64,000 nt of DNA from Planctomycetota bacterium (GTDB lineage Bacteria; Planctomycetota; UBA8742; UBA2392): assembly GCA_027493625.1 (NCBI GenBank), contig JAOSKM010000003.1:599028-663027 (forward strand), in the 5' to 3' direction. The notes beneath the pieces were generated by a model. It searched no databases, was not told where the DNA came from, and worked only from the letters and a program-made list of their open reading frames with translations. Positions 6,992-47,788 of this stretch are shown here, one piece after another. Each line of letters opens with the position of its first letter. Position 1 is the stretch's first letter. The position numbers and the translations under genes were made by a program.

Positions 6992-7641
6992 GACTACCCC
7001 CACTCCAAAGGTTGTCCCGAGACCGAGTAAATCGCCGATAGGATACGCGAGCCCATACGACTCTGGAAAGCGGAAAAGGTCACCCAACGGCAGATTTGAT
7101 ATGACCGCACGAAGCCTGTTCACGGGTCGAGGGCATCCCAAAGACTCGAACCAACTTTTGCTCGATGGTTGCTTGGTGGCAAGAGGACCGACGAGCCAAC
7201 TACCGTAGACAGAGGAAAACGACGAGCGTGTAAACTGGGATACCGTATCCCAAGCGTCAAGTGGATTGCCGTGGCACTTCCTTGAGGCATTGGCCCCAAG
7301 CGGTTACGCTGGCAGCAGGTTTGGAGACTTGATTGATGGGTTGATCCGGCACTGCCGGAAAAGACGAACGCAATCGCGCACACAACAGCTTTCTGCGGCC
7401 AGAGCAAATCCGCCAGATTTCATATGAGACCGCAGAGCGTGGTGCGCCCCGAAAGGGGCGGCCCGTTCTGCTTCTCATGGGCTCCTGGCGGAGCCTGCTC
7501 TGGGGCGGTTCGGTGTCCGCCCTGTCTTTTTCACTCATGGTGACCGCAGCACGGGTGAGTTCCGGGCGCGGATTCCCGTTCCGCGCTCACTCACGGAGAG
7601 GCGTCCTCTCCGCGTGCTTTCAGCGGGAACAGGAAGAAACA

Positions 7642-8160
7642 ATGACCTACAACGTCATACGGAGTGCGGCGCGTCTGGCAGCACTTCTCACGCTATCGCT
7701 GTCAGTGTTCAGCGGGTGTGCTTCGGGACCCGCACCGATTCCGCGCCTTCAGACTTCGGCGCAGGGGTACTCCGCCGATTTTGATCCTGCCTGGAACGCC
7801 GTCAACGATGTGCTCACGGAAAAGCGGTTGCCAATCAAGGCAATCGAGAAGGAGTCCGGCCTCGTCACCACGGAGTTCGTGAACAGCGGAGCACGATACA
7901 TCTATTGGGGCAAGACAAACGAGGCTGGTCAGGAGATGTCCACGTGGGCGGAAAAGACACGCTACTTCCTGAACATCCGGGTCCGTGAACGCGACGGAGG
8001 GGGCACGACAGTCGATGTCCTGCCACACTTCGAGTACATGCGTTACGAGTACAACTCCGTTCTCAAGCGAAGTGTGGAGGCAGGCTGGGAAGCGTGCGAG
8101 TCCCACGGCGACGTAGAGCGCGAAGTCTACGATGCACTGACGGCAAAGCTAAACCGCTGA
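7642..8160 (+). CDS. lipoprotein, hypothetical
   Basis: Internal start MTYNVIRSAARLAALLTLSLSVFSGC (lipobox) preceded by aggaag. Confidence 0.5.
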   Translation: MTYNVIRSAARLAALLTLSLSVFSGCASGPAPIPRLQTSAQGYSADFDPAWNAVNDVLTEKRLPIKAIEKESGLVTTEFVNSGARYIYWGKTNEAGQEMSTWAEKTRYFLNIRVRERDGGGTTVDVLPHFEYMRYEYNSVLKRSVEAGWEACESHGDVEREVYDALTAKLNR

Positions 8161-11947: not shown

Positions 11948-12149
11948 GTTCGCGGCTGCCTGCGCGGCCGCAAGGGGCAAACGATTACCGCTGTTTGGGG
12001 CGCTTGTCAACTACCGGTCAACCCGGGATACCGCCCCTTGTCCCCGGCCTTACAGGCAACGAATCGCGGTTGCGGCCTGGCGCGGCGGGTCCGTTGACGT
12101 CGCGGCCCTTGCCGGAATAATGGTTGTCTGGATCTTTGCCGGAAACCCG

Positions 12150-13460
12150 ATGTCCGAACGCATCCTGATCGCCGACGACTCCCGTGAGCTCCGCACGGTG
12201 CTGTCCGCCCAGCTTCGCAAGCTGGGTTTCGACGTGCAGGTCGCGGTCGACGGCCAGGACGCGCTGGAGCGCGCCCGCAGCTTCAGGCCCACGCTGATCA
12301 TCATGGACATCATGATGCCGAAGCTCAGCGGCCTGAAGGCCACCAAGAAGATGCGCGACGACCCGGAGCTCGCCCACACGCCGATCATCCTGATGTCCCA
12401 GCTCGGCGAAGAGCAGGACGTGGTGGAAGGCATTGAGGCCGGCGCCGACGAATACCTGGTCAAGCCCTTCCGCCAGGCCGAGCTGGCGGCGCGTGTGCGC
12501 ATCCTGCTGCGCAAGGCTTCCGGTGCCCGGAAGAACCTGGACGAGACCACGGCCCAGGGCCTCGAGTCCGCCGAGGAAAACGATGCGGTACGGCGCTTCA
12601 AGGAAACCGGCCAGATCGTCAGCAAGGACTTCGCGGGCTTCACCATCATCGACAAGCTGGGCCAGGGCGGCTCGGCCACGGTCTACCGCGCCATGGAGCC
12701 GGTGAACCTCAAGCCCGTGGCGCTCAAGATCATCAGCCCCTTCGCCGCGGTCAAAGAGGGTTTCATCAAGCGCCTGGCGCGCAGCAACGAGATCGCCGTG
12801 CGGCTGATCCACCCGCACATCGTGCGCACCTACACCATGGGCGAGTACCAGGACGTGCATTTCATGGTACAGGAACTGGTGGAGGGCCAGGCCCTCGACA
12901 ACTACATCCATGAAGAAGGCGGCCGCCTGCCCGAGGCCAAGGCGCGCCGCTACATGCTGCACATGGCCGAGGCCATCCAGTACCTCGAGCAAAAGGGCCT
13001 GATCCACCGCGACATCAAGCCCGGCAACATTTACGTCAGCCAGGACGACGTCGCCAAGCTGGGCGATTTCGGGCTCTCACGCCAGCGCGACGACCTGGGC
13101 CAGACGGCCGAGGGCTACCTGCTCGGCACGCCGCATTACATCAGCCCGGAGCAGGCTAACGGCGACAAGCAGATCGACAGCCGCAGCGACCTTTACTCGC
13201 TGGGGGCGACCTTCTTCCACCTGCTCAGCGGCCAGCCGCTGTTCCCGGGCGACAACCTGCAGCAGGTGGTGCTCGCGCACCTGACCAAGACGCGCCCGCG
13301 CCTGGCCGACCTGGCGCCCGACACCAGCCCGGAATTCTGCACCATCATCGACAAGCTGGTGGAACGCGAACGGGAACAGCGCCACCAGAGCGCCGCGGCG
13401 CTGATCGAGGCGCTCAACGCCCTGCCGCCGCTGCGCAGCCTGAAGGGCCTCTCCACATAG
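12150..13460 (+). CDS. response-regulator receiver domain fused to a Ser/Thr protein kinase
   Basis: REC motifs (ILIADDS...IIMDIMMP...KPF) then kinase subdomains (GQGGSATVY, ALK, HRDIKPGN, DFG, SPE). Confidence 0.85.
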   Translation: MSERILIADDSRELRTVLSAQLRKLGFDVQVAVDGQDALERARSFRPTLIIMDIMMPKLSGLKATKKMRDDPELAHTPIILMSQLGEEQDVVEGIEAGADEYLVKPFRQAELAARVRILLRKASGARKNLDETTAQGLESAEENDAVRRFKETGQIVSKDFAGFTIIDKLGQGGSATVYRAMEPVNLKPVALKIISPFAAVKEGFIKRLARSNEIAVRLIHPHIVRTYTMGEYQDVHFMVQELVEGQALDNYIHEEGGRLPEAKARRYMLHMAEAIQYLEQKGLIHRDIKPGNIYVSQDDVAKLGDFGLSRQRDDLGQTAEGYLLGTPHYISPEQANGDKQIDSRSDLYSLGATFFHLLSGQPLFPGDNLQQVVLAHLTKTRPRLADLAPDTSPEFCTIIDKLVEREREQRHQSAAALIEALNALPPLRSLKGLST

Positions 13461-13665
13461 CAGCCCGGCGCCCACTGTGCCAACCGGGCGCGCTCGCTCG
13501 ATGAAAATCACCTCACGGTCCGAAACGTCGTGCGGGGGCAGCCGGCACACTTCACCTTGCCCGGGATCGTCCCCTCTTCTTCAAACGCGCTCGGGAAACG
13601 TGACCCGTCACGGGTATACTGTTGCAGCGGCCACCATCACGGTCGCGCGGATCGACAGGTTCAAC

Positions 13666-14322
13666 ATGAAACCAGCCCGCACACTGCGGATCGCCACACT
13701 GGCGCTGTTGCTGCTGGCCGTGAGCGCCTGCCCGGAAGACGTGAAGCAGGAGGAGCGCAAGGCCACCCAGGACCTGCTGCTCGACCAGTTCGACGCCACG
13801 AGCTTCCCGACCTCGACCTGGACCATCACCGGCACCGGCACGCTGGTGCAGGACCTTGCCGTCGGCGCGCCCGCGCCGGCCATGCGCCTGGACAGCACCG
13901 GCACACCGGCCGGGCTGATTTCCGCGCCCCTGGAAGCCGGCGCCCACTTCCGAGTCAGTATCGCCATCGACCCCGCGCCCGGCAGCGGCGCCAGCGCCAG
14001 CTTCGTGCTGCGCAACGCGTCGGGCGGCGCGGTGGTGGCCTCGGTCACCGTAGAAGAAGGGCAGATCACGTACGTGATGGGCGCGGCCGCGCCGGTGGTG
14101 AAGACCTGGACCACCGACGGCGCATTCCATGTGTTCGAGTTCGAGGGCAGCAACTCCAGCGTATCCGGCGGCCACTGGTGGAAGCGCGACGGCAGCCTCG
14201 AGGCCAGCCACCTGCAGCCCACGGGCGCCAGCTATATGACCATGGGCCTGGAAGGCACATCTTCAGGTAACGCCTGGTTCGACCATGCCTGGGTATTCCG
14301 ATACCTGGCCTACCCGCACTGA
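13666..14322 (+). CDS. lipoprotein, hypothetical
   Basis: MKPARTLRIATLALLLLAVSAC lipobox start within ORF 13477..14322. Confidence 0.5.
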   Translation: MKPARTLRIATLALLLLAVSACPEDVKQEERKATQDLLLDQFDATSFPTSTWTITGTGTLVQDLAVGAPAPAMRLDSTGTPAGLISAPLEAGAHFRVSIAIDPAPGSGASASFVLRNASGGAVVASVTVEEGQITYVMGAAAPVVKTWTTDGAFHVFEFEGSNSSVSGGHWWKRDGSLEASHLQPTGASYMTMGLEGTSSGNAWFDHAWVFRYLAYPH

Positions 14323-16892: not shown

Positions 16893-17392
16893 AAGAACGG
16901 CAACTGCATGCTCACGTGGAGGCGCCAAGGCGCCAAGAACTGCAGTGCTTCTCTTGGCGCCTTGGCGGCTTGGCGTGAGGCCGCTGTGCTTTGGTTTTAG
17001 GGGCCACAAAAGCACGAAAACACAAAAGGTACTGCGCACAAAAGCAGCAGCCTTTTCGTGGCGGTTCCTTTGGTGTTTTCGTGTTTTCGTGGCCTGCTGC
17101 AGTTTCCACGAATCGGTCTGAACCGCGAAGTACCGCCAAGCACCGCCAAGCACCGCGAAGAACGGCAACTGCATGCTCACGCGGAGGCGCCAAGGCGCCA
17201 AGAACTGCAGTGCTTCTCTTGGCGCCTTGGCGGCTTGGCGTGAGTCTGCTGTGTTTCGGTTTTGTGGGCCATAAAAGCACCAAAACACAAAAGGTACTGC
17301 GCACAAAAACAGCGGAGCTTTCGTGGCGGTTCCTTTGGTGCTTTGGTGTTTTCGTGGCCTCCTGCAGTTGCTACGAAACGGCGTGAACCGCG
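16893..17392. repeat. two tandem ~260-bp units of a palindrome-containing repeat family
   Basis: Each unit carries the hairpins ggcgccaaggcgccaaga...tcttggcgccttggcg and ggccacaaaagcacgaaaacacaaaagg...cctttggtgttttcgtgttttcgtggcc. Confidence 0.8.
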
Positions 17393-17436: not shown

Positions 17437-18207
17437 CTATAGAGTGATTCCCAGCTTCACCGTGAACCAGCTCCCGCCGCCGTTCTCGAATGCGAACCAG
17501 GTCCAGCCGATGTAGACAAACACCGGCGACAGGGGGCGGCCAAGCCTGATGCCCGCGCTGATCTCGGGCTCCGCGAACACCCCAGGGTCGAAGTTGAGGT
17601 TCAAGGCGCCATCCAGGCGGAACTCGACCACACCGACCCCGAAGAACGCCCAGTGTTGCAGCCGCAGGGCGGCGCGGTGGTCCAAGCCTCCTTCACTATG
17701 TGCGAACTGCGTCCCCTCGCCATAGTGGAACCCCAGAGCCAGTCCGGTGCCTCCACTGAACAGTGTCGAGCGCTGCAGCGGGAAGCCGCCGCTGCGTGAC
17801 AGCGACACCTTCCATTCACCCGGTTCGTCTCCGAAGTAATCGACGCCAAAAGAATAACCGCTTGTAATCCAGGCGCGCATCGGGTTGGGACTGACGCCGA
17901 AGCCGCGTTCCCAACCCGCATCGAAAGTCAATTGATGCGGCGCAAGAAGTTTCTGGTTGAAGCTCAACATCGGACCGAACACACGATCCACACCCACCCG
18001 GAACTGCACCTCCGCGCCGTACCAGCCTGAAGAGTCAAAGTCGGAGCGAAACTGCCCTGCGGCATCCAGCAGGAACGGCAACCGCCACGGCGGTGCGATC
18101 TCTGTAGGTGGCGCAGGTGGCTGCGGTGCAGGGGGTACGGGCGGCTGGCCAGCGCATGCTGCGGATAGAAGAACCGAGACAATCAGGATGGCCAGGCGCG
18201 GAAGCAT
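17437..18207 (-). CDS. lipoprotein / outer-membrane-like protein, hypothetical
   Basis: MLPRLAILIVSVLLSAAC lipobox; Gly/aromatic-rich. Confidence 0.55.
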   Translation of the reverse strand: MLPRLAILIVSVLLSAACAGQPPVPPAPQPPAPPTEIAPPWRLPFLLDAAGQFRSDFDSSGWYGAEVQFRVGVDRVFGPMLSFNQKLLAPHQLTFDAGWERGFGVSPNPMRAWITSGYSFGVDYFGDEPGEWKVSLSRSGGFPLQRSTLFSGGTGLALGFHYGEGTQFAHSEGGLDHRAALRLQHWAFFGVGVVEFRLDGALNLNFDPGVFAEPEISAGIRLGRPLSPVFVYIGWTWFAFENGGGSWFTVKLGITL

Positions 18208-18261: not shown

Positions 18262-18790
18262 TCATGCTCAACACCAATGACACGGAGCTTGGCTGCCTCG
18301 AGCTGAAGGGCGCTAAGAACTGCAGAGTTGTTCTTGGCGGCTTGGCGTGAGTCTGCTGTGCTTCAGTGTTAGGGGCCACAAAAACACGAAAACACAAAAG
18401 GTACTGCGCACAAAACAGCGGGGCTTTCGTGGCGCTTCCTTTGGTGCTTCCGTGTTTTCGTGGCCTGCTGCAGTTGCCACGAAACGGTTTGAACCGCGAA
18501 GTACCGCCAAGCACCGCGAAGAACGGCAACTGCGTGCTCACGCGGAGGCGCAAAGGCGCCAAGAACTGCAGTGCTTCTCTTGGCGCCTTGGCGTGAGGCC
18601 GCTGTGTTTCGGTTTTATGGGCCATAAAAGCACGAAAACACAGAAGGTACTGCGCACAAAACAGCGAGGCTTTCGTGGCGCTTCCTTTGGTGCTTCCGCG
18701 TTTTCGTGGCCTGCAGCAGTTGCCACGAAACGGCGTGAACCTCGTGGTTCGGAAACTGCATGCCTCGTTTCACCGATAGCACCTGGAAGC
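18262..18790. repeat. second block of two ~260-bp repeat units, flanked by a degenerate copy of the 3' end of gene 15574..16833
   Basis: Direct-orientation copy of 16893..17392; its ends resemble ...SFELKGAK and ENCSLRFTDITWK coding sequence. Confidence 0.8.
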
Positions 18791-18812: not shown

Positions 18813-20777
18813 GTGAACACAGATAAACACGGGCGTGTGGTTCCGTGTCCTTCCGTGTCCCTTGGTGGCTCACTTTCAATGAAGCTGATCGTCGAAATCT
18901 CGCAGGGCCTGGGCAACTGCGTGCAGGGCACGCCGCTGCTGCACGCGCTGTGGCTGATGGGTCACGAGGTTGACCTCTACATCAACAGCCCGATCGCCGA
19001 CAAGCTCAAGCCCCTGTGGGAGAAGTGGGAAATCCTCGGCCGTATCTTCACGCACCACGAGCAGCTCAACATCAAGGACTACGACTTCGGCGTCAGCGCC
19101 TACGGGCGCCGCCAGCTGGTGCGCATGCTCCCTCCCGGCCTGTGCCTGAAGGTCGAGAAGCGCCACGTGCAGCGCCAGAGTGAAACAGAAGCCAACGTCG
19201 AGCTCGCCCGCTGGCTCGGTTATTCCGGGCCCACGCCGCGCTCGCATGTGATCGGTCATGACCCGAACCTGGAACGCCCGCCCGAGCACCGCCACAAGCG
19301 CACCGCGCCGACCGGCGCCGTGGTGGTGCACGCCGGCTGCGACCCCAGCAATGCAGTGAAGCGCTGGCCCTTCTGGCCGGAGATCTGCCGGCGCATCGCG
19401 GACACCGGGCGCGACGTGATCATCGTCGGCACCCACGACGACCGCAGCGAAGAGAACTGGGAAGATGAGTTCGTCTCGCGCTTCCACATGGAACTGCCCG
19501 AGCTGGCGGCGCTGCTTGACGTGTCAAGCTTATACCTGGGCAATGACTCCGGCGTGGGGCACGTGGCGGCCGCCGTCGGCCTGCCGGGCCTGATGCTGTA
19601 CGGCCCCAGCAACCCGGTGAAGAACGCGCCGAACTCAAGCGTGATGCGCACGCTGGTCGCGCCCGGCGAGCAAGGCGAAGAGCGCGACGTGAAGGCCGCC
19701 CGCCCGGTGCCGATCGAGCGCCTGACCGTGGACCAGGTATGGAGCGAGGTCGAGAAGCTTCTCGCCAACCCGCAGCGCGAGCCGGAGCGCGAGCTGCCGC
19801 AGCGCGTGCAGGACTCGCCCGAGGCGCGCTGGGAGCACTACGTGCACATGACCCAGGCGCAGCCGGAGGTGCCCGGCGTTGAAGAACGGGGACAGTCCCC
19901 TGCGGGGACAGTCCCCAAGGTCAGTGTGGTGATCCCCAGCTACAACCGCGCGGACAACCTGGAGCGCGCCGTGAAATCGGCCTTGGCGCAGACCATGACC
20001 GATCTCGAGGTGCTGGTCGTGGACGACGGCAGCACGGACGACACGCCCACGCGCTTCGCCAGCCCGCCGGCGCGCGTGCGCTACATCCGCAAGCCCAACG
20101 GTGGCGCCAGCAGCGCCCGCAACGCCGGCTTGCGCCGCGCGCGCGGCGAATGGATCGCGCTGCTGGACTCCGACGACGAGTGGATGCCCGAAAAACTTGC
20201 CGTGCAGCTCGTGGCCATCGGCGAGCAGTACGTCGCGGCCGCCTCGCGCCACGTGCACGTCAACGCCGACGGCTCGCGCGAGACCAAGCCGGAAATCCTG
20301 CCCGGCCGTGACAACCACCTGTTCCGCGACCTGTACGAGAATCTGTCATTGAAGACCAGCAGCCTGCTGTTCAAACGCCACCTGCTGGAGAAAATGGGCC
20401 TGTTCAACGAGCGCTTTCCCATTTCAAACGACTGGGACTTTTTCCTGAGGCTGGCCCGCGCGGTCAGCAACTCCGGCATGCGCATGGTTGAGCAGGCCCT
20501 GCTGACCGTGCACCGCAGCCCGGACAGCATCAGCAAGGTCGGGCGCGAACGCGCGCTGGAAGAGGCCTACAGCCGCATCTGCATGGTGAACGCCCTGCTG
20601 CACAACCACGACGAGCAGGCCATCCGCATGCACGTCAACCGTGCCGCCCGCAAGCACCTGGAGCTCTCGCGCGCCTACCGCAAGGCCGGCGACAAACACC
20701 AGGCCAAGCACCACGCGAAAGAAGCCATCCGCGCCGGCCTGATGTTGAAGGGCATCTGGCGCTGGCTGCAGGCGTGA
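18813..20777 (+). CDS. bifunctional glycosyltransferase: GT9 (heptosyltransferase-like) N-domain fused to a GT2 C-domain
   Basis: GT9-like ...VVHAGCDPSNAVKRWP..LYLGNDSGVGHVAA; GT2 VSVVIPSYNRADNLERAV..VVDDGSTDDT..DSDDEW; alternative start MKLIVE at 18879. Confidence 0.7.
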   Translation: MNTDKHGRVVPCPSVSLGGSLSMKLIVEISQGLGNCVQGTPLLHALWLMGHEVDLYINSPIADKLKPLWEKWEILGRIFTHHEQLNIKDYDFGVSAYGRRQLVRMLPPGLCLKVEKRHVQRQSETEANVELARWLGYSGPTPRSHVIGHDPNLERPPEHRHKRTAPTGAVVVHAGCDPSNAVKRWPFWPEICRRIADTGRDVIIVGTHDDRSEENWEDEFVSRFHMELPELAALLDVSSLYLGNDSGVGHVAAAVGLPGLMLYGPSNPVKNAPNSSVMRTLVAPGEQGEERDVKAARPVPIERLTVDQVWSEVEKLLANPQREPERELPQRVQDSPEARWEHYVHMTQAQPEVPGVEERGQSPAGTVPKVSVVIPSYNRADNLERAVKSALAQTMTDLEVLVVDDGSTDDTPTRFASPPARVRYIRKPNGGASSARNAGLRRARGEWIALLDSDDEWMPEKLAVQLVAIGEQYVAAASRHVHVNADGSRETKPEILPGRDNHLFRDLYENLSLKTSSLLFKRHLLEKMGLFNERFPISNDWDFFLRLARAVSNSGMRMVEQALLTVHRSPDSISKVGRERALEEAYSRICMVNALLHNHDEQAIRMHVNRAARKHLELSRAYRKAGDKHQAKHHAKEAIRAGLMLKGIWRWLQA

Positions 20778-20996
20778 CGGATCGCGGGCGCCCGCCCGCA
20801 AAAACCCGGGCTGCAAAGCCCCGGGGATCAGGCGCGGGTGGGTCGGATTTCCATCTCGATCATCAGAGGGAATGTTCTCCGCTTTGGTGTGAGCCTTTAC
20901 AGGTGGTTCCCGGTCATGCCCGATCCCCGGCCGTTGCCGGCCGGGCTTTGGCGCAGGGGGCTACACGCCTGCGTGGTTTGAACGTACATTCCCGGC

Positions 20997-21731
20997 GTGA
21001 CGACGAACCCGGAATCGGTTGCCGAAGCCTTCGCGGACGGGCCTCTCAAGGCCACGCACAAGGCCACGGTGCGCGACGGCAAAAAGCGCGAGAAGCGCCT
21101 GGACCGCCTGCGTCTGCAGGGCTTCTGGCCGGTGTACGCCGCCTTCATCGCGCTGGCGTTGCGCCCACCGCTGGCTGAGGAGCATGTCGCGCTGGTGGTC
21201 ATGCGCTTTGTCGGCCTGGGTTTCGCCCTGCTGGGCGTGGCCATGCGCATCTGGTCTATGGGCTACCTGCTGAAGAAGACCGAACTCGCCACCGCGGGCC
21301 CCTACGGGCGCACGCGCAACCCGCTGTACGTCGGCACCTGGCTGATCGGCTGCGGGCTGGCCCTGCTGGCGGCGTGGCCCTTTAACCTGATACTGCTCAC
21401 GATCTACAACGCGCTGTTTTTCGTGATCTATCGGCTGCAGATCGGCATCGAAGAGGAGATGCTGTCCAGCATCTACGGCGAGCCCTACCGGGTGTACTGC
21501 GCGAACGTGCCGCGCTTCTTCCCGCAGTTGAAGGCCTGGCGCGTGGGCGACGTCAGCCGATTCAGCCTCAAGCGCGCCTTCCAGAATCGCGCCTGGGAGC
21601 CGGTGCTGGGTCTGCTGTTGCTGCTGGCCCTTCAGGTTGCGGCCTGGGGCCTGGTATGGCCGGCGATCAAGGGCGCGGACTTAGGGCAGGCCTGGCGACA
21701 GTTCATCGCCGGCGGCTGGCTGGGCTTCTAG
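20997..21731 (+). CDS. ICMT/PEMT-like membrane methyltransferase family protein
   Basis: Multi-TM with RNPLYVG...EEEML..YGEPY motif region. Confidence 0.55.
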   Translation: MTTNPESVAEAFADGPLKATHKATVRDGKKREKRLDRLRLQGFWPVYAAFIALALRPPLAEEHVALVVMRFVGLGFALLGVAMRIWSMGYLLKKTELATAGPYGRTRNPLYVGTWLIGCGLALLAAWPFNLILLTIYNALFFVIYRLQIGIEEEMLSSIYGEPYRVYCANVPRFFPQLKAWRVGDVSRFSLKRAFQNRAWEPVLGLLLLLALQVAAWGLVWPAIKGADLGQAWRQFIAGGWLGF

Positions 21732-21880
21732 TCCGGTTCCTGCAGAAGCAGCCCCCGAACGAGCTTCAGCAGCCAAGTCCCGCTCACTCCTCCGAAAAAG
21801 GACTTCAAGGCAGACGTCGATCCGCATCTGTCATTTGCCTGCACCGGATTCGCCGGTTAGTGTGCTGTTGAAAAGGGGGC

Positions 21881-22819
21881 GTGATGACTATCGGTGAGAA
21901 CCTGACTGAATTTGCGGGCTTGCCCGTCGAGGACTTCCGGATGTCCGAGGGCATTTCCAGGCCGGAAAGCGTCTGCTACCGCGTCAGGCTGGACTGGGAC
22001 GAGCACGAGGCGGGCACAACCTTCATGGAGGTGCTCAATCGATTCCTTGACGACCCCAATCTGCCGCGTGTGAAGTCCTTCGTGATCGGCCTGTGGGCGC
22101 CGGAAATGGAGGGGGACGCGCTGCTGGTTGTCAGCAGCCTTGCGTCCGCGGCCGACAGATTGAGGAACCTGGAGGCCCTGTTCGTCGGCGACATCACCTT
22201 CGAAGAGCAGGAGATCTCGTGGATCCAGCAGACGGACATCACGCCGCTGTTTGATTCGCTGCCCAAGCTGAAGACGCTTCGCGTACGCGGCAGTGACGGC
22301 CTGCGCATGGCGTCAGTCCCGCACGCCAACCTGCGCGAGTTTGCCCTGGAGTCCGGCGGCCTGCCGTCACACGTGATCCAGGCCGTGCTCGGCTGCGACT
22401 TCCCGGCACTTGAGCATCTGGAGTTGTGGCTTGGAGACAGCGGCTACGGCTGGGATGGAACCGTCGAACTCCTCGATCCCCTGCTGCAGGGAAAGCTGTT
22501 CCCGAATCTCAAGTACCTGGGCCTGCGAAACTCAGAGATCTCCGACGAAATTGCCGAGGCCATCTCCACGGCGCCCATTCTCGAGAGACTGGAGGTGCTG
22601 GACCTCTCCATGGGAACCCTGGGCGACCGCGGCGCCGACGCGCTGCTGAAGGCCCCGGCGCTAGCTAAGCTCAAGAAGCTGGATGTTCACCACCACTACA
22701 TCTCTGACGACAGGGTCCGGCAGCTGGGCAACAGCGTCAAAGAACTCAATGCCGGTGACAAGCAGGAACCCGATGACTGGGGCGGCGAACAGCATCGCTA
22801 CGTCGCCGTCGCTGAATAG
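21881..22819 (+). CDS. STM4015-family-like protein (leucine-rich-repeat-like)
   Basis: Repeated L-rich units; family recalled, not searched. Confidence 0.5.
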   Translation: MMTIGENLTEFAGLPVEDFRMSEGISRPESVCYRVRLDWDEHEAGTTFMEVLNRFLDDPNLPRVKSFVIGLWAPEMEGDALLVVSSLASAADRLRNLEALFVGDITFEEQEISWIQQTDITPLFDSLPKLKTLRVRGSDGLRMASVPHANLREFALESGGLPSHVIQAVLGCDFPALEHLELWLGDSGYGWDGTVELLDPLLQGKLFPNLKYLGLRNSEISDEIAEAISTAPILERLEVLDLSMGTLGDRGADALLKAPALAKLKKLDVHHHYISDDRVRQLGNSVKELNAGDKQEPDDWGGEQHRYVAVAE

Positions 22820-22841
22820 CGCGGGCGGCAGGCGCTCATGG

Positions 22842-23912
22842 GTGGTTGTCGGCGATCCGGCCGATAACCGCGTGGCGCTTTTTCTGCAGGCGTGCCGCGA
22901 GGCAGATGCACGGGCAGAGGTACTCGACTATCGCGCCGTCCTCGACGACAGCGAGCTCCTCGACGCAATCCCGGACCACACGTTCGTGCGGCTGGAGTCT
23001 CCCGGACGTGCGCCGGATCTCTACCTGCGCCTCCTCGAGATAGGCGGCGGATGCCCGCCGGCGCGAATCCCGAAGGGTCTGATCCTGCAGCCCGACGCCT
23101 GGTTCAGGGGCTTTCATTCGATGCTGCGCGAGATCGGCGGGCGCCTGCAAGGCCGCGTGACCTGGACCGCCCACCCCGACGACATCGTCCACCTGTTCGA
23201 CAAGCCCCGGTGCCAGGCAACCCTGGCGGCGGCGGGCATCGCCGTCCCAAGACAGCTTGGCGCCATCCGCGCCTATGACGAGTTGCGGCGGCGGATGCGA
23301 ACCAATGAGGTCAGCCGCGTGTTCGTCAAGCTCCGCAGCGGCTCTGCGGCTTCCGGCGTCATCGCGTTGCGGACGGCGGGCGACCGCGTGCAGGCCGTCA
23401 CCACCGTGGAGCAGACCGAGTCAGGCCTGTTCAATTCGCGGCGCATCCGCGAGCTGTCCACCGAACGGGACGCGGCCGCCCTGGTGGATGCCCTTTGTGC
23501 TCACCAGGTGTTCGCCGAGGAATGGATCCCGAAGGCAGGGCTGCGCGGACGTACATTTGACATTCGCATCGTGACCGTAGCCGGCGACCCGCAGCACGCC
23601 GTGGTGCGGCTTTCAAAGCACACCATGACCAACCTGCACCTGCTCAACGACCGGGCAAGCGTGGACGAGCTGCGCGGGCGGATGACCGGCGAGGCCTGGG
23701 ATTCCCTGCTGGACTCGTGCCGGCGCGTGGCGCGCCTGTTTCCGCGTACGCTTCAACTGGGACTTGATGTCGCGGTGCTGCCGGGCATGCGTTCCCACCG
23801 GGTGCTCGAAGTCAACGCGTTCGGCGACCTGCTCAAGGGCGTGACCCACGGCGGCCGCAACACCTATGACGCGCAGCTGGCTGCGGTACAGGAGGGCTGG
23901 CGCGGTGAGTGA
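22842..23912 (+). CDS. STM4014-family-like protein (ATP-grasp-like)
   Basis: Start inferred at the in-frame GTG after the upstream stop; family recalled from memory. Confidence 0.45.
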   Translation: MVVGDPADNRVALFLQACREADARAEVLDYRAVLDDSELLDAIPDHTFVRLESPGRAPDLYLRLLEIGGGCPPARIPKGLILQPDAWFRGFHSMLREIGGRLQGRVTWTAHPDDIVHLFDKPRCQATLAAAGIAVPRQLGAIRAYDELRRRMRTNEVSRVFVKLRSGSAASGVIALRTAGDRVQAVTTVEQTESGLFNSRRIRELSTERDAAALVDALCAHQVFAEEWIPKAGLRGRTFDIRIVTVAGDPQHAVVRLSKHTMTNLHLLNDRASVDELRGRMTGEAWDSLLDSCRRVARLFPRTLQLGLDVAVLPGMRSHRVLEVNAFGDLLKGVTHGGRNTYDAQLAAVQEGWRGE

Positions 23913-24513
23913 TTTCGAACTGCTGGTGTTCGACCTCGACGGAACGCTGATCGACCGCGACGGCGCGCTGCTTTCCGCGTGCGAAAAACTCCTCGGTCCG
24001 CGTCCGGCGGAGGCGCAGGGCGAACTCGCTTCGCTGGTGGCAGCTTCCGGCAGTATCCGACGCCTCGCGGCACGGTTCCGATTGCCGGCCGATCAACTGC
24101 GCAAGGCCATGCTGGAGGAGCTTCGCCCGCGGGCGGAAGTTCGGCAGCTGCTGGTGCGGCTGCGAAAGGATCACGGCCTCGTGTTGTACACCAACGGGTC
24201 CGCAGCGGTGCAGCATGCAAAGATTCGCGCGGCCGGCCTGGATGGCTGTTTCGACCGTTACCTGGTGTCAGGCGAGGTCGGACTGCGCAAACCGGACACC
24301 GCGTTCCTGAAGCTCGCCCTCGGCGGAACGCCGGCTGCAGACGCGCTGGTGGTCGGCGACGACCCGCGGCTGGACATCGCGCCGGCCGTCAGTCTGGGCG
24401 CTGCGACCTGCCTGGTGGGAAGCGCGGCGAAGCACGAGGCCGCGCAATCCCGATTTCACGTGGACGATGTGCTGGAGCTCACGGAGGTGTTGGCATGTCC
24501 AGCTTCGACATGA
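23905..24513 (+). CDS. HAD-superfamily hydrolase
   Basis: LLVFDLDGTLID motif I; GTGAGTGA start/stop overlap with the upstream gene. Confidence 0.7.
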   Translation: MSDFELLVFDLDGTLIDRDGALLSACEKLLGPRPAEAQGELASLVAASGSIRRLAARFRLPADQLRKAMLEELRPRAEVRQLLVRLRKDHGLVLYTNGSAAVQHAKIRAAGLDGCFDRYLVSGEVGLRKPDTAFLKLALGGTPAADALVVGDDPRLDIAPAVSLGAATCLVGSAAKHEAAQSRFHVDDVLELTEVLACPAST

Positions 24514-25292
24514 ACGCCATCGTGGGCACGCACGACATTCTGTGGATCACGCTCGATACGCTGCGCTTTGACGTTGCCCGAAAAGCGCTTGCCGAAGGGC
24601 GCACTCCCAACCTGGCCGCGCTGGTTCGTGACGGCTGGGAGCGCCGCCACACACCCGGGAACTTCACGCTTGCCTCGCACGCCGCCTTCTTTGCCGGTTT
24701 TCTTCCGACGCCGGCCACGCCCGGGCCGCACCCGCGGCTGTTCGCGGCCGCGTTCGAGGGCAGCGAAACCACCAGCCCGCACACCTGGGTGTATGAAGCG
24801 GCGGACGTCCCCGGCGGGCTTGCCCGCGCGGGTTACCACACGGTATGCATCGGCGGCGTCGGCTTCTTCAACAAGCGCACCCCTCTCGGCTGCGTGCTGC
24901 CGGGTCTGTTTCGCGAGAGCTTCTGGGAACCTTCTTTCGGGGTGACCGGCCGGGACTCCACCCGGAACCAGGTCGATTGCGCGCTGAACGTGATCCAGCG
25001 CGTGAGGCCATCTCTGCGACTGCTGCTGTTCCTGAACGTGTCCGCCCTGCACCAGCCGAACTGCATCTTCGTGGACGGCCAGACAACGGACAGCCCGCAC
25101 ACGATGGAGGCCGCGCTGTGCTATGTTGATTCACAACTGCAGCCGCTGGTCCGCGCGATGAAGGCACGCGCGCCTCTGTTTTTCATGATCATGTCCGATC
25201 ACGGCACGGCCTACGGCGAGGACGGCTATCGCGGCCATCGTCTCGGCCACCCGGTCGTCTGGGAGGTACCCTATGCCCACGGTATCGCCTGA
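24496..25292 (+). CDS. STM4013/SEN3800-family-like hydrolase (alkaline phosphatase / sulfatase superfamily)
   Basis: Start MSSFDMNAIVGTHDILWITLDTLRFD with RBS ggagg; ...MSDHGTAYGEDGYRGH. Confidence 0.55.
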
Positions 25293-26634
25293 ACCGAAGC
25301 CGGCCATGAGAGCGGCCGCGGCAAGCATGCAGCAGTTGCTCGCCGGCACGTCGTACGTCAGCTACAGCTACGGCTATCCGCACAAGACGGCATACCGTGC
25401 GCTGAGTCCGCGCAGGCTGCAGGAAGTATGGAACGCCGAGCCGCGGGACGCATTGTTCCTGTACGTTCACATTCCCTTCTGCTCCGTGCGCTGCGGCTTC
25501 TGCAACCTGCTGGCCACAACCGGCGCCGAGGCAAGCCTCGTCCGGCGCTACATCGACACGCTTGAGCGCCAGGCCGTGGCCACCCGCGAGGCAGTCGGGC
25601 GCCGGACCTTCGTGCGGGCCGCCCTGGGCGGCGGCACACCCACCTTTCTGCAACCCGCAGAGCTGCGGCGCGTCCTGGATGTGATGCGCAACACCATGGG
25701 CGCGGACCTGGCCGCAATCCCGACGGGCGTAGAGGTTTCGCCCGAGACTACGGATGGGGAGCGCCTGGCCGTGCTGCAGGAGTTCGGCGTTGACCGCGTC
25801 AGCATCGGCGTGCAGTCATTTGACCAGCGCGAGGCCGGCGCGATGGGCCGCCCGCAGCGCGACGCCGACGTGCACCGGGCCCTGCGACTCATCCGCGACC
25901 ACCACTTCCCGACGTTGAACATCGACCTGATTTATGGCGGTGCCGACCAGACCACCGCCAGCTGGCTGGCCTCGATCCGCACCGCGATCGAGTACCGCCC
26001 TGAAGAACTCTACCTCTACCCCCTGTACGTGCGGCCGCTGACCGGTCTGGGCCGGCGCGGCCAGTCGTGGGATGAACAGAGGATCAGCCTCTACCGGGCG
26101 GGGCGCGACTTCCTGCTCGAGCAGGGCTATCAGCAGGTGTCCATGCGGATGTTCCGCGCGCCCCACGCGCCGACATGCACCGCGCCCGTCTACTGCTGCC
26201 AGCAGGACGGGATGGTGGGCCTGGGTGCGGGGGCGCGCTCGTATACACGCGAGCTGCACTACTCCACGCGTTATGCCGTCGGCAGAGCGGGCGTAAGCGC
26301 CGTGATTGAAGACTATGTCAGCCAGGATGCCGCGGCGCTGGCGACCGTCGACTACGGCTTTGAGATGGACGACGGTGAACGGCGGCGAAGGTTCGTGATC
26401 CAGAGCCTGCTGCAGGCCGAGGGCCTTTCGCGTACGGAGTACCGCGGCGCCTTCGGCTCGGACGCGCTCAATGAAATGCCGGCGCTGCAGGAGCTGCAGC
26501 AGCACGCGCTCGCGACCGTCACCCAGGACCGGGTCTGCCTTACGCCTGCGGGCCTTGAACGGTCAGATGCGATCGGTCCCTGGCTCTACTCGGCCCGCGT
26601 CGGCCGCCTGATGGAGGAGTTCGCGTGGACATAG
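25273..26634 (+). CDS. HemN-like radical SAM protein (STM4012-family-like)
   Basis: CSVRCGFCN (CxxxCxxC) and HemN-like downstream architecture. Confidence 0.7.
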   Translation: MPTVSPEPKPAMRAAAASMQQLLAGTSYVSYSYGYPHKTAYRALSPRRLQEVWNAEPRDALFLYVHIPFCSVRCGFCNLLATTGAEASLVRRYIDTLERQAVATREAVGRRTFVRAALGGGTPTFLQPAELRRVLDVMRNTMGADLAAIPTGVEVSPETTDGERLAVLQEFGVDRVSIGVQSFDQREAGAMGRPQRDADVHRALRLIRDHHFPTLNIDLIYGGADQTTASWLASIRTAIEYRPEELYLYPLYVRPLTGLGRRGQSWDEQRISLYRAGRDFLLEQGYQQVSMRMFRAPHAPTCTAPVYCCQQDGMVGLGAGARSYTRELHYSTRYAVGRAGVSAVIEDYVSQDAAALATVDYGFEMDDGERRRRFVIQSLLQAEGLSRTEYRGAFGSDALNEMPALQELQQHALATVTQDRVCLTPAGLERSDAIGPWLYSARVGRLMEEFAWT

Positions 26635-27734
26635 GCTTCGACCTGGCGATCCTGTACCGCGGCTCCCTCGAGAGCTGCAACTACGATTGCTGGTACTGCC
26701 CGTTTGCCAAGGCGCAGGACTCGGCGGATTCGCTGGCGGCGGATGCCGCTGGGTTGCAGCGCTTCGTCGACTGGGTCGCAGCCAACCCCACGCGTCGACT
26801 CGGCATTCTGTTCACCCCGTGGGGTGAGGCGCTGGTGCGCGAGTACTACCGCGAAGCGCTGGTTGAGTTGAGCCACCTCCCGCACGTGACGCGCGTGGTG
26901 GCGCAGACCAATCTGTCATATCCGCTCGATTGGCTTGAAAGCGCCGATCGCCGTAGCGCGGCGCTCTGGTGCAGCTATCACCCGAGCCAGACTTCACGCG
27001 AGCGATTCCTGAGCCAGACCGCACGCCTGCGCGAACTCGGCATTCGGCACACCGTGGGAATGGTCGGCCTGAAAGAGGACCTGCCTGAAATCGAGTCGAT
27101 GAGGGCCGCACTGCCGGAACAGACGACGCTTTGGATCAACGCCTACAAGCGTGAAGCGAACTACTACACGGCCGACCAGGTCGCCCGCCTGGGCGCCATT
27201 GACCGGTTCTTCCCGTTGAACAACACGTATCATCCCAGCCGCGGAAAGGCATGCGAAGCGGGCGCGCGCACAATCACGGTCGACGAAAGCGGCGAAGTTC
27301 ACCGATGCCACTTCGTCAACCAGCGCCTGGGCAATCTGTACACCGACGACCTGGCAGCCATGTTGAAGCCCCCCGCGCCCCCGAATAAAAACCCCCCCTC
27401 CCCCAACCGAACCCCCCCGGGGGGGGGGAGGGCACGCCCCCGCCCCGCACGGGGGGCACCGACCCCGGCAAAAGAACCGGAGCCCCGAACCACGCTCGGG
27501 TTATGCCGCGCCGGCCGGGATGAGATTCCGAAGTCTCGCGCGAAGCCTGTCCGGGTAGCGCAACGCGCACTCCCACACCACTGCAACGCGCCACGCTCCT
27601 GGACGCTCTGGAACGGACCGGGCAGGAGTGGCCAGAGACGACGTTTTCCGCCATCTTGCGTATTGTCCGCTGTGAAAGAGCCTGCCCCGGGGCGGCATCC
27701 AACCCACTGCCGGGCCGCCTCGCATCAGCAGTAA
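26625..27734 (+). CDS. radical SAM protein (STM4011-family-like); 3' end beyond ~27360 corrupted by a low-complexity tract
   Basis: CNYDCWYCPF (CxxxCxxC) near the N-terminus; after ...NLYTDDLAAML the frame reads through poly-C/poly-G (PPAPPNKNPPSPNRTPPGGG...). Confidence 0.65.
   Translation: MDIGFDLAILYRGSLESCNYDCWYCPFAKAQDSADSLAADAAGLQRFVDWVAANPTRRLGILFTPWGEALVREYYREALVELSHLPHVTRVVAQTNLSYPLDWLESADRRSAALWCSYHPSQTSRERFLSQTARLRELGIRHTVGMVGLKEDLPEIESMRAALPEQTTLWINAYKREANYYTADQVARLGAIDRFFPLNNTYHPSRGKACEAGARTITVDESGEVHRCHFVNQRLGNLYTDDLAAMLKPPAPPNKNPPSPNRTPPGGGRARPRPARGAPTPAKEPEPRTTLGLCRAGRDEIPKSRAKPVRVAQRALPHHCNAPRSWTLWNGPGRSGQRRRFPPSCVLSAVKEPAPGRHPTHCRAASHQQ
27361..27480. other. C/G homopolymer-rich low-complexity tract (probable assembly artefact or chimeric junction)
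   Basis: cccccgcgcccccgaataaaaaccccccctcccccaaccgaacccccccgggggggggg... Confidence 0.6.
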
Positions 27735-27747
27735 GTCTGCGTTCAAG

Positions 27748-27785
27748 GCTGGAGCCACCTGTCGGATTTGAACCGACGACCTGCC
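27748..27785 (-). repeat. partial 3'-half duplicate of tRNA-Thr(CGT), att-like
   Basis: 36-nt exact copy ggctggagccacctgtcggatttgaaccgacgacct about 165 bp downstream of the intact tRNA. Confidence 0.75.
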
Positions 27786-27951
27786 AGCAGCCCGGTGGGC
27801 TGTCGGCACAGCGAAGCAGCCGGCCGAAGCGCCCGCGTAAGCGAAGCGGCGCGGGCGCAGCCCGCAGGTCGGCGGCGGAAAAAAGAAGAGGCGTGCCGAC
27901 ACATTCGGCACGCCTCTAGCCTGGCCTGCCGGCCGAAGCCTTGGCGAAGGC

Positions 27952-28026
27952 TGGAGCCACCTGTCGGATTTGAACCGACGACCTACGCTTTACGAAAGCG
28001 TTGCTCTACCGCTGAGCTAAGGTGGC
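27952..28026 (-). tRNA. tRNA-Thr(CGT)
   Basis: GCCACCTTAGCTCAGCGGTAGAGCAACGCTTTCGTAAAGCGTAGGTCGTCGGTTCAAATCCGACAGGTGGCTCCA. Confidence 0.85.
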
Positions 28027-46175: not shown

Positions 46176-46245
46176 TGGCAGGACGTGAGAGAGTCGAACT
46201 CCCCCGGCCGGCTTTGGAGACCGGCCCGGCCCCGGGCCCCGTCCT
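46176..46245 (-). pseudogene. degenerate tRNA-like element (70 nt, T-arm and acceptor recognisable, no clean anticodon arm)
   Basis: ...GGGAGTTCGACTCTCTCACGTCCTGCCA with the 5' strand AGGACGG. Confidence 0.25.
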
Positions 46246-46246
46246 G

Positions 46247-46271
46247 TGGTTCGCAGGCAAGGATTCGAACC
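46247..46271 (-). repeat. partial 3'-end copy of tRNA-Gln (25/26 nt), att-like
   Basis: tggttcgcaggcaaggattcgaacc versus tggttcgcgggcaaggattcgaacc at 46400. Confidence 0.7.
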
Positions 46272-46399
46272 CCGAAACAGTCCAGCGGACTGTTTCGGAC
46301 CCGCAGCAGGCCGGCCAAAGCTCGCCGGAAGGGCGAGCGACGCCGGCCGTAAGCGGAGGGGTCGCCCTATCAGGCCGGCATTCCCTTCATCTAGAGGCT

Positions 46400-46474
46400 T
46401 GGTTCGCGGGCAAGGATTCGAACCTTGATTTCCTGGTTCAGAGCCAGGCGTCCTACCAGTTGGACGACCCGCGA
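46400..46474 (-). tRNA. tRNA-Gln(CTG)
   Basis: TCGCGGGTCGTCCAACTGGTAGGACGCCTGGCTCTGAACCAGGAAATCAAGGTTCGAATCCTTGCCCGCGAACCA. Confidence 0.8.
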
Positions 46475-46571
46475 GCGGTGTAGGGACACGCTGCCGCGTG
46501 TCCCTACGTTCCCGGTTTTCGCTTTCGAAGGACGGGGACAGTCCCGAACTTCCGAGACAGTCCCCTTCCGA

Positions 46572-47186
46572 TCAGATGCCCGACAGGATTGTCGGGCCCA
46601 CCCGGTCCTTCAGAAACGCCTTCCAGCTCTCCTGCAGCGCTACTCCACCAAGGATCAGCTGGTCGCGCGTCGGCTGGAACGGCTGGCGGCGCAGCGCCAG
46701 GCCGGCCTCAACCGGCGTGCGGTCGGCCTTCTGGTTATTGCAGCGGCCGCAGGCCAGCACGCAGTTCAGCCAGCTGGTGCCGCCGCCGCGCGAGAGCGGC
46801 TGCACGTGGTCGATCGTCATTGCGCGCTTGTGCACGAAAATGCCGCAGTACTGGCACTGGCCGTTGTCGCGCTCGAACACGCCGCGGCGCGAGTAGGGCA
46901 CGCCGGTGTTGGGGTAGCCGGCGAAGCGGGCGAGTGTGATGACCTCCGGCTTGCGCACCTGCAGATGCGCCGTGCGGATGTAGTCGTGCTCGATTACATG
47001 CGCATCGGCCGGCACGGCCTTCTCGCTCAGCCACTGGGCCCAGTCGAACAGCTGGTAAGTCTCCGGGCACACGACGCGCGCGCGGCCGCGGAAAACCAGT
47101 GTCAGGGCCTGCTTGACGACCACGGTGGTGATCGGCTGCCACACGCGGTTGAGTGTCAGCACACGCTCGAGTTCAACACGCGTCAT
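46572..47186 (-). CDS. HNH endonuclease embedded in the tRNA array
   Basis: GQCQYCG...MTIDHVQPLSRGG...NCVLACGRCNNQKADR HNH motif; start MTRVELERVL within ORF 46572..47336. Confidence 0.8.
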   Translation of the reverse strand: MTRVELERVLTLNRVWQPITTVVVKQALTLVFRGRARVVCPETYQLFDWAQWLSEKAVPADAHVIEHDYIRTAHLQVRKPEVITLARFAGYPNTGVPYSRRGVFERDNGQCQYCGIFVHKRAMTIDHVQPLSRGGGTSWLNCVLACGRCNNQKADRTPVEAGLALRRQPFQPTRDQLILGGVALQESWKAFLKDRVGPTILSGI

Positions 47187-47202
47187 ACAGCCTCCTTTCA
47201 GG

Positions 47203-47253
47203 GTCAGGGTCAGGCTCAATTTCGGCCGGCACGGACGAAATTGTGCCTGACCC
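47203..47253. repeat. long hairpin at the HNH gene 5' end; related copy at 48813..48848
   Basis: gggtcaggctcaatttcg gccggcacgga cgaaattgtgcctgaccc. Confidence 0.6.
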
Positions 47254-47267
47254 TTTTGAGCGTTCGT

Positions 47268-47341
47268 TTGGTAGCGGCGGCCGGAATCGAACCGGCTGGG
47301 TTGGGCGTATGAAACCCACCCGCGTCCAACGCGCACCGCAG
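47268..47341 (-). tRNA. tRNA-like, possible tRNA-Met(CAT); poor acceptor and D-arm, may be a pseudo-tRNA
   Basis: Good T-arm/3' acceptor GCCGGTTCGATTCCGGCCGCCGCTACCA and anticodon arm TGGGT-TTCATAC-GCCCA. Confidence 0.3.
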
Positions 47342-47344
47342 TGA

Positions 47345-47424
47345 TGTTTGGGCGATTGGGTGAATGTGACCTTCACCTATCGAAGGGAAAGCGGTGCTTT
47401 CCCTTCGATACAATCGCTTCGCGA
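47345..47424 (-). ncRNA. conserved spacer element with a covarying hairpin, immediately 3' of tRNA-Lys; homolog at 48076..48154
   Basis: accttcacctatcg-[aagggaaagc ggtg gctttccctt]-cgatacaatcgcttcgcgattgg. Confidence 0.4.
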
Positions 47425-47498
47425 TTGGTCCGCCCGGCGGGACTTGAACCCGCATCTGACCGGGTAAGAACCGGCCGCTCTGCATTGAGCTACAGGCG
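47425..47498 (-). tRNA. tRNA-Lys(CTT)
   Basis: TCGCCTGTAGCTCAATGCAGAGCGGCCGGTTCTTACCCGGTCAGATGCGGGTTCAAGTCCCGCCGGGCGGACCA; two G-U pairs in the acceptor stem, short D-loop. Confidence 0.7.
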
Positions 47499-47502
47499 AA
47501 TA

Positions 47503-47709: not shown

Positions 47710-47710
47710 G

Positions 47711-47781: not shown

Positions 47782-47788
47782 GTTGTGT

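Follow-up and report, generated by a model that had tools for sequence, protein, structure and literature searches.

Which molecule does the STM4011–STM4015 cassette act on, and for what purpose? The question is raised by a six-gene block, from 21881 to about 27482 on the + strand, in the stretch of 64,000 nt of planctomycete DNA (contig JAOSKM010000003.1) that we refer to as the window. The block encodes STM4015, STM4014, a HAD phosphatase, STM4013, STM4012 and STM4011. NCBIfam lists the cassette families as 'hypothetical equivalog' models, and a literature search on the STM401x, SEN3800, DUF6745 and 2RA8 names and on the enzyme combinations found no functional study. The STM401x names yield incidental mentions only, in keeping with an earlier note on this DNA that described the core cluster as having no known function: a sigma-54 chromatin immunoprecipitation site inside STM4013, an entry for STM4011 in an RNA-seq table, and an entry for STM4015 in the table of a Salmonella positive-selection screen (Typhi lineage, value 0.0693; PMC2784778). 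We tentatively propose, with somewhat less than even confidence, that the cassette modifies the C-terminal tail of a protein, namely of the leucine-rich repeat (LRR) protein that it encodes itself.

All five families are recognized above the curated NCBIfam cut-offs. The window proteins score 334 bits for STM4015 (NF038076, cut-off 275), 353 bits for STM4014 (NF038074, cut-off 175), 394 bits for STM4013 (NF038075, cut-off 250), 586 bits for STM4012 (NF006067, cut-off 380) and 328 bits for STM4011 (NF038073, cut-off 200). The family check proposed in the earlier note therefore leaves the families standing, and its labels (LRR-like, ATP-grasp-like, alkaline phosphatase/sulfatase-like, HemN-like, and a second radical S-adenosylmethionine (SAM) enzyme) are correct by these scores. 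The STM4015-family LRR protein (21881..22819) is followed by the STM4014-family ATP-grasp ligase (about 22839..23912, with an alternative ATG start at 22773), the HAD-IA phosphatase (about 23905..24513, in an open reading frame (ORF) that opens at 23866), the STM4013/SEN3800 hydrolase of the alkaline phosphatase superfamily (about 24498..25292), the HemN-like radical SAM enzyme STM4012 (25273..26634) and the radical SAM gene STM4011, which reads as 26625..27734 in the window and shows homology from 26625 to about 27385. From 4015 to 4011 the genes overlap or are separated by gaps of 20 nt or less. The order 4015-4014-4013-4012-4011 on one strand is the canonical one, with the HAD-IA gene placed between 4014 and 4013. 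The window is thus a member of a recurrent six-gene HAD-IA variant of a catalogued cassette, and the instance itself is ordinary.

We scanned species-representative genomes, one per species, with an STM4013 alignment. The scan gave at least 519 matches, and 80 loci (labeled L below) were kept for the analysis of gene neighborhoods, from Acidobacteriota, Cyanobacteria, Planctomycetota, Actinomycetota, Chloroflexota, Myxococcota, Desulfobacterales and Proteobacteria. Non-redundant STM4013 proteins number more than 6000. Plasmids of Methylobacterium, Streptomyces, Deinococcus, Paenibacillus and Salmonella, most of them large replicons, carry the cassette as well, and its distribution is wide and patchy. 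All five families are present in 66 of the 80 loci, mostly in the same order. When the best match of each locus is compared with the window protein, the median identity is 61% for STM4013, the most conserved component, followed by 52% for STM4012, 49% for STM4011, 42% for STM4015 and 39% for STM4014.

The cassette behaves as two modules, 4015-4014 and 4013-4012-4011. Of 72 STM4014 genes, 64 are immediately preceded on the same strand by an STM4015 gene, at a median distance of 28 nt, and the pair remains intact in L025, L036, L059, L067 and L071, though inverted relative to 4013-4012-4011. Between two and six (2-6) tandem, diverged STM4015 paralogues are found in 33 of 72 loci, an arrangement that resembles the precursor genes in clusters for ribosomally synthesized and post-translationally modified peptides (RiPPs). 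Judged by length, no 4015-4014 fusion proteins occur among the homologues listed, which fits a need for a free C-terminus. No amidase, peptidase, protease, exporter or release hydrolase is conserved in the 80 neighborhoods. Two further arrangements of the STM4015 genes were seen in cyanobacteria. Many Nostocales loci have an extra STM4015 copy between STM4012 and STM4011. In 11 cyanobacterial loci (L010-L064; for example L013:204-1763 and L019:3352-4005, both on the minus strand) an Hsp70/actin-like ATPase gene and a putative coiled-coil gene, assigned purely from the look of their sequences, stand beside multi-copy STM4015 arrays.

The C-terminus of STM4015 was compared across 237 proteins, made up of 120 database homologues and 117 proteins from the loci, all tandem paralogues included. 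The proteins end exactly in glutamate in 234 of the 237 cases. Counting back from this residue (-1 E, 234 of 234), position -2 is S, G or A in 218 of these proteins, -3 is V in 216, -4 is A in 175, -5 is V or I in 187, -6 is Y or F in 233, and -7 is R in 208. The window protein ends in HRYVAVAE and fits an R-[YF]-x-[AS]-[VL]-x-E tail; the divergent Salmonella protein is still Glu-terminal (...YMNAMYTE). An acidic linker (27% D/E vs 8% K/R) comes before the tail, and the 312-aa window protein runs from a ribonuclease-inhibitor-type LRR domain through this linker to the tail. An AlphaFold2 model predicts an LRR solenoid with a mean predicted local distance difference test score (pLDDT) of 94, in which the linker forms a small hairpin and the last seven residues are non-regular. 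Foldseek places PDB entry 2RA8 first (TM-score 0.80, 34% identity); the next matches are NLRP3, ribonuclease inhibitor and F-box LRR proteins. Entry 2RA8 (Bacteroides fragilis Q64V53, from structural genomics) is a direct STM4015 homologue, with an hmmsearch E-value of 3.5e-73 over profile positions 26-299; it is a structure without an assigned function, and the profile alignment ends before the tail and says nothing on the C-terminus. We propose that STM4015 is the substrate or the scaffold of the cassette enzymes.

The ligase STM4014, the partner of the Glu-terminal protein in the first module, is modeled by AlphaFold2 with a mean pLDDT of 94.7. Foldseek matches in the PDB come in the order ArgX-LysW (3vpb), PsnB, RimK (including the RimK-RpsF complex), LysX and MdnC. 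Residues K122, K164, D310, E324 and N326, which we take to be the ATP-grasp nucleotide and magnesium ligands, are invariant in the family. Sequence identity to ArgX, LysX and RimK is about 10-19%, and PsnB and the D-Ala-D-Ala ligase Ddl score similarly. The nearest sequence and fold matches of STM4014 (ArgX/LysX, RimK and PsnB) are thus ligases whose substrates are carboxylates of proteins or peptides. In ribosomal protein S6, the C-terminal Glu is extended by RimK. LysX and ArgX load the C-terminal Glu of LysW (PMC10433800, PMC12998189).

The two radical SAM enzymes also have matches, weak ones for STM4011, among peptide-modifying proteins. Against the sequences of the PDB, STM4012 matches HemN (1OLT) at 4e-27 and NocN, a class C methyltransferase of thiopeptide biosynthesis, at 5e-21. 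STM4011 gave no meaningful match against PDB sequences. An intact copy of this protein, encoded by a contig closely related to the window (L088, see below), has sub-threshold matches to the nif11 maturase (2e-5), PapB (4e-4) and SPASM (0.01-0.05) models, all of them peptide-maturase SPASM radical SAM families. These weak matches fall at residues 134-265, with the SPASM domain at 210-247.

The remaining enzymes are hydrolases. STM4013 shows an invariant D...T-x3-H...S-D-H-G...H pattern, with residues that include D16, T53, H57, D230, H231 and H243, and has weak matches to nucleotide pyrophosphatase/phosphodiesterase (NPP) and sulfatase structures around the S-D-H-G metal motif; by comparison with the known NPP motif, T53 would be an NPP-type nucleophile. 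The HAD protein of the window scores above the cut-offs of PF00702, PF13419 and TIGR01549, and its homologues are called as proteins of 202 aa. The earlier note had described this gene as inserted here. It does lie between 4014 and 4013 but is not peculiar to the window: a HAD-IA gene has the same position in the relatives L081, L085 and L086 and in three distant lineages, L007, L009 and L072 (a Desulfobacterales metagenome-assembled genome (MAG), Myxococcus and a Bradymonadales MAG, respectively). The Salmonella operon instead carries a non-orthologous Cof-type HAD-IIB gene that overlaps the STM4011 stop and was not found in the other 80 loci. The recruitment of HAD phosphatases has thus occurred on two or more occasions, with different subfamilies placed at different points of the operon. 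Two such independent recruitments beside an alkaline-phosphatase-superfamily enzyme suggest a phosphorylated precursor or intermediate.

The closest named counterpart of the window cassette is STM4011-STM4015 of Salmonella enterica, which agrees with it in all five families, in their order and in their location on one strand, and likewise has a Glu-terminal STM4015 and an attached HAD phosphatase. It represents a divergent branch: its STM4013 shares about 36% identity with that of the window, as against about 60% for most other phyla. The two also differ in the HAD gene, which is Cof-type IIB after 4011 in Salmonella and HAD-IA between 4014 and 4013 in the window, and in the STM4015 tail, YMNAMYTE as opposed to RYVAVAE. 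On plasmid 3 of Salmonella Senftenberg (L169, 5050-10641) the cassette lies between ompL and typA.

From these components we infer that the STM4015 tail is the substrate, and also infer the chemistry and the order of steps, as follows. STM4015 would present an invariant R-Y/F-V/I-A-V-S/G/A-Glu-COOH tail behind its acidic linker. STM4014 would convert a carboxylate of the terminal Glu into an acyl-phosphate and then join an amine to it, comparable to the action of LysX/ArgX on LysW and of RimK on S6. STM4012 and STM4011, the latter with a SPASM-like Cys-rich end, would perform C-H chemistry, for example methylation, cross-linking or decarboxylation, and the pair might act on the tail or its adduct, or on the amine before ligation. 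STM4013 would remove a phosphoester from a phosphorylated precursor or intermediate, with the HAD phosphatase assisting in this variant. The LRR body would then be a variable target-binding part and the modified tail a constant functional group, so that the product would be the LRR protein itself with a modified C-terminal Glu. The reading is drawn from the Glu-exact terminus, the coupling of 4015 and 4014, the multiplicity of paralogues, the lack of a conserved release hydrolase and the peptide or protein affinities of three enzyme classes.

The enzyme classes of the cassette and their nearest relatives match those of RiPP pathways, namely the graspetide ligases PsnB and MdnC, the radical SAM-SPASM maturases and the class C methyltransferases NocN/NosN, and the multiple tandem 'precursor' paralogues with a shared conserved modification motif add to this likeness. 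By contrast with RiPP precursors, STM4015 is a folded 300-aa protein without a leader peptide. Phosphatases are part of the set, no RiPP recognition element or PqqD domain was found in Pfam and NCBIfam scans, and no conserved protease or exporter is present in the neighborhood.

Several observations weigh against modification of the tail, which is proposed from comparisons of sequences and predicted models. The substrate classes of ATP-grasp enzymes are discriminated modestly here: in the Foldseek comparison D-Ala-D-Ala ligases follow with E-values only about 100-fold weaker than those of the top matches, and the STM4014 profile places LysX, RimK and ArgX first among PDB sequences with a marginal E-value of about 0.03. 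In the STM4015 model the tail is fairly confidently placed (pLDDT about 91 for residues 301-310, falling to 67 for the last two residues), and it could accordingly serve to cap the structure instead of forming a free arm for the enzymes. The absence of a RiPP recognition element from the scans counts on the same side, and the alkaline-phosphatase-type and HAD enzymes have no obvious role in pure peptide modification. STM4011 as sequenced in the window lacks its Cys-rich end. Finally, in L003, L014 and L077 the 4013-4012-4011 trio, or 4013 alone, is found within 10 kb, suggesting that the trio may have a function independent of the protein.

A more far-reaching version of the proposal is doubtful, though we regard it as a real possibility: STM4015 may represent a new class of ribosomally made folded proteins that carry an enzymatically derivatized, invariant C-terminal Glu, to which an adduct would be ligated by an ArgX/RimK-like enzyme and then tailored by two radical SAM enzymes. 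HemN chemistry converts propionate to vinyl, and by analogy the HemN-like STM4012 could even act on the propionate side chain of the glutamate. Such proteins would be diversifiable LRR binders sharing one chemical group, possibly for use in inter-genomic conflict.

The same ligase and tail could instead serve carrier-protein biosynthesis in the style of LysW or the pearlins. STM4015 would then be a scaffold, to whose Glu an amine is ligated, tailored and released as a metabolite, after which the scaffold is regenerated. The LysW-LysX/ArgX system (and RimK-S6) places a RimK/LysX-fold ATP-grasp enzyme beside a protein with an invariant last Glu after an acidic segment (PMC10433800, PMC12998189), as the cassette appears to do, and the nearness of STM4014 to ArgX/LysX and the Glu-terminal partner both favor a carrier. 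The 49-61% identity of 4013, 4012 and 4011 across phyla would also fit a universal small substrate. A DDWGGE element in the window STM4015 recalls the EDWGE motif of LysW (PMC10433800), but D-x-W-G-G-E occurs in only 10-40 of the 234 members and is not a family feature, and we dropped the motif as evidence. The two proteins differ considerably: LysW is a zinc-ribbon protein of ~54 aa with an EDWGE tail, whereas STM4015 is an LRR protein of ~310 aa with a hydrophobic RYVAVSE tail. The enzymes differ as well, since the cassette has two radical SAM enzymes and an alkaline-phosphatase-type hydrolase, homologues of LysZ, LysY, LysJ and LysK are absent from the neighborhoods, and the cassette has no conserved amidase or peptidase that could release a product. 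A carrier also offers no reason for a 300-aa LRR protein in 2-6 diverged paralogues. We consider a carrier role unlikely.

A role in conflict or immunity would be compatible with tail modification. Here, diversifying LRR proteins, including a second family, DUF6745, would sense invaders, and the enzymes would make or activate a toxic or signaling molecule, for example one derived from a nucleotide and dephosphorylated by STM4013 and the HAD enzyme. The patchy distribution over many phyla and on plasmids is in favor of this, as are the tandem, diverged LRR paralogues, the linkage of DUF6745 to the cassette, the defense-like neighbors of some relatives and the presence of STM4015 in the positive-selection screen table (PMC2784778). 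DUF6745 proteins adjoin the cassette in 41 of the 80 loci (L004-L080), often with N-terminal LRRs (for example L044:5004-6086 on the minus strand and L025:9029-9955 on the + strand), and also at L084:13765-14778. They all end in ...Y-x-P-x-x-[EQ]-T, except for a spurious ORF clustered with the family in L031, and to judge by these sequences they are, after STM4015, another LRR-type family of the system in which the C-terminus is exactly conserved. We rejected DUF6745 as a sixth component of the cassette: despite its presence in 41 of the 80 loci it is absent from the window, which has a single LRR gene. Neighbors of a defensive character were seen in two loci. In L085 (5665-11774) the cassette stands next to a PLD, MZB and helicase set with a DISARM-like look, and in L084 STM4015 is immediately preceded by a SIR2 gene, with a DUF4253 gene on the downstream side (7174-7902 and 12983-13753). 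These neighbors do not recur across loci. PADLOC 2.0 models found no defense system among the window proteins, the sole match being that of the radical SAM enzyme STM4012 to PDC-M51A at 22 bits; matches in phage collections are Salmonella or E. coli fragments only. On this balance a conflict or immune function seems improbable.

A heme or tetrapyrrole role would make STM4012 a HemN-, HemW- or ChuW-type enzyme acting on a porphyrin, with the other proteins as accessories. STM4012 does score 98 bits against HemN 1OLT and has sub-threshold matches to the corresponding models. It stays below the cut-off of every heme equivalog (130.7 of 205 bits for HemW, 128.8 of 400 for ChuW and 124.1 of 325 for HemN), yet reaches 586 bits for its own family. 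No genes for heme biosynthesis, uptake or degradation recur in the 80 neighborhoods, and the ATP-grasp enzyme, the Glu-tailed LRR protein and the phosphatases would be left unexplained. The earlier note's preference for a pathway other than heme is reasonable on these grounds, and we regard the heme reading as very unlikely.

The first description of this locus extended the cassette upstream. It counted nine closely spaced or overlapping, co-directional genes from 18813 to 27480, with two carbohydrate- or lipid-modifying enzymes at the front, and suggested a pathway that modifies a glycoconjugate or peptide. In the ORF list the row does run co-directionally on the + strand from 18813 to about 27480, but it holds eight real genes, all with a GC content at third codon positions (GC3) of 0.76-0.90; the ninth ORF (20774-21178), with a GC3 of 0.54, is non-coding. 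The first gene (18813..20777, + strand, GC3 0.90) is indeed a glycosyltransferase fusion, of a GT9 (heptosyltransferase-like) domain (PF01075, residues 159-282) and a GT2 domain (PF00535, residues 371-510), with a likely start (MKLIV...) at 18879 within the ORF opening at 18813. The second (20997..21731, + strand) was called ICMT-like. It is a membrane methyltransferase of the PEMT/ICMT superfamily (PF04191, 37 bits against a cut-off of 25), but falls far below the specific models, with 41.7 of 160 bits for ICMT (NF040696) and 40.5 of 325 bits for LmtA.

Close spacing holds from 4015 to 4011 but not for these two genes. A spacer of 219 nt, unusually structured (z = -2.4), separates the glycosyltransferase stop from the methyltransferase gene, and one of 149 nt (z = -0.8) separates the latter from STM4015; no known RNA or riboswitch was found in the spacers with Rfam. 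Between the genes, a scan for promoters and terminators detected neither sigma-70-like sites nor terminators on the + strand, which in a 65% GC genome is weak evidence either way. The comparison of neighborhoods across phyla that had been suggested for this locus shows that the core cassette recurs and the upstream genes do not: in none of the 80 loci, from many phyla, is a GT9/GT2 fusion or an ICMT-like gene found within 10 kb. The closest informative relative, L081 (a planctomycete MAG whose STM4013 is 71% identical), shares all six genes, the HAD gene among them, but has DUF2568 and glnA upstream, and the Salmonella and Paenibacillus cassettes have neighbors unrelated to those of the window. 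A PEMT-type gene upstream of the cassette occurs only in L087, a 96%-identical strain contig. When metagenomes were scanned with the glycosyltransferase fusion, only generic GT2 relatives (30-45% identity) came up, with no GT9-GT2 fusions and no cassette genes nearby, and the scan is uninformative on linkage to the cassette.

We therefore give next to no credence to a single operon of fusion, methyltransferase and cassette that modifies a glycoconjugate, lipopolysaccharide or lipid: the genes are co-directional, no strong + strand terminator was detected between them and the strain L087 shares the arrangement, but the 219 and 149 nt gaps stand against overlaps inside the cassette, the two genes are missing from the 80 loci and from L081 and are shared only with a near-identical strain, and Pfam and NCBIfam scans of the cassette proteins revealed no signal peptides or envelope-related domains. 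The two genes are most likely unrelated neighbors of the cassette, and of the alternatives in the original suggestion 'or peptide' is the better half. The ICMT family classically methylates protein C-terminal carboxylates, which by analogy would make an intriguing link between the operon and the Glu tail. The methyltransferase at 20997-21731 is a distant ICMT relative, linked to the cassette at the strain level only, and we note its position as a curious coincidence. Further upstream, four copies of an intergenic repeat family (17001-17392 and 18306-18744; 127-193 nt, 65-96% identical, with internal hairpins and no Rfam match) flank a 256-aa ORF without a Pfam match (17437-18207, minus strand) and take up the ~470 nt that precede the glycosyltransferase gene.

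The other end of the row is damaged. The earlier note had the row end at 27480; the window has no stop there, and the STM4011 frame reads on to 27734, past the stop expected at 27480-27482. The window STM4011 matches NF038073 profile positions 2-245 of 278, and the homology stops at about 27385. Nearly all of 73 homologues share a conserved end, P-R-x-C-x4-C-x-C-H-I-G-Y-V-H...L-E-R-I-P; the C-x4-C-x-C-H-I-G-Y...LERIP motif is absent from every frame of the window. The missing end falls in an anomalous C/G-homopolymer patch (27370..27500) over the last ~38 codons and the stop of STM4011, and the coding GC3 signal is lost after 27366. The comparison with L088, a Logan contig from another sample, is informative here. 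This contig is colinear with the window and 99.5% identical over 23992-27774 outside the patch, with 58 mismatches within 27370-27500 and 18 in the other ~3650 nt. It encodes an intact STM4011 of 288 aa that scores 379 bits over profile positions 2-278, and its TAG stop aligns with GAG at 27480-27482 of the window. In the patch ~125 nt are smeared into runs of C, G and A, the T count falls from 21 to 3, and all base types are replaced, with a net loss of 9 nt that keeps the reading frame. Because the gene is intact in this contig, which outside the patch is 99.5% identical to the window, the patch is probably low-quality sequence, an assembly or base-calling artifact in the source genome, and not biology.

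Two other explanations of the patch were considered and ruled out. Truncation of STM4011 by an integrating element, in association with a tRNA-Thr repeat, is contradicted by the colinearity of L088 throughout, from which only the ~125-nt homopolymer smear differs. Hypermutation by a diversity-generating retroelement is contradicted by the substitution of all four bases. In the repeat in question, 38 nt from the 3' end of tRNA-Thr are duplicated perfectly and in direct orientation, at 27745-27782 and 27947-27984, 202 nt apart; tRNA-Thr(CGT) itself lies at 27952-28026 (minus strand), and a strong minus-strand terminator hairpin with a 13-bp stem (27917-27887) stands between the repeat copies. 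To judge from its sequence, this looks like a separate small scar of integrase-mediated insertion and excision; no integrase is found nearby. Elsewhere, the window contains 15 tRNA genes in 2.75 kb at 46177-48931 on the minus strand (Trp, Gln, Met, Lys, Val, Pro, Arg (x2), Glu, Asp, Ile, Ala, Gly, Phe, His), and a response-regulator receiver domain fused to a Ser/Thr protein kinase domain at 12120-13460 on the + strand.

For the annotation of this genome, the analysis separates the cassette from the glycosyltransferase and methyltransferase genes and flags a probable sequence error in its last gene. For the family, the matter is wider. STM4013 is conserved at ~60% identity across phyla, and the cassette includes two radical SAM enzymes. 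What is new here is the link between the Glu tail and the ATP-grasp enzyme, which gives a direct experimental handle on the family. If the tail of STM4015 is modified as proposed, the cassette would represent a type of post-translational modification of protein C-termini that has not been described before, and would extend the LysW/RimK principle, in which an ATP-grasp enzyme acts on a C-terminal Glu, to a new class of proteins.

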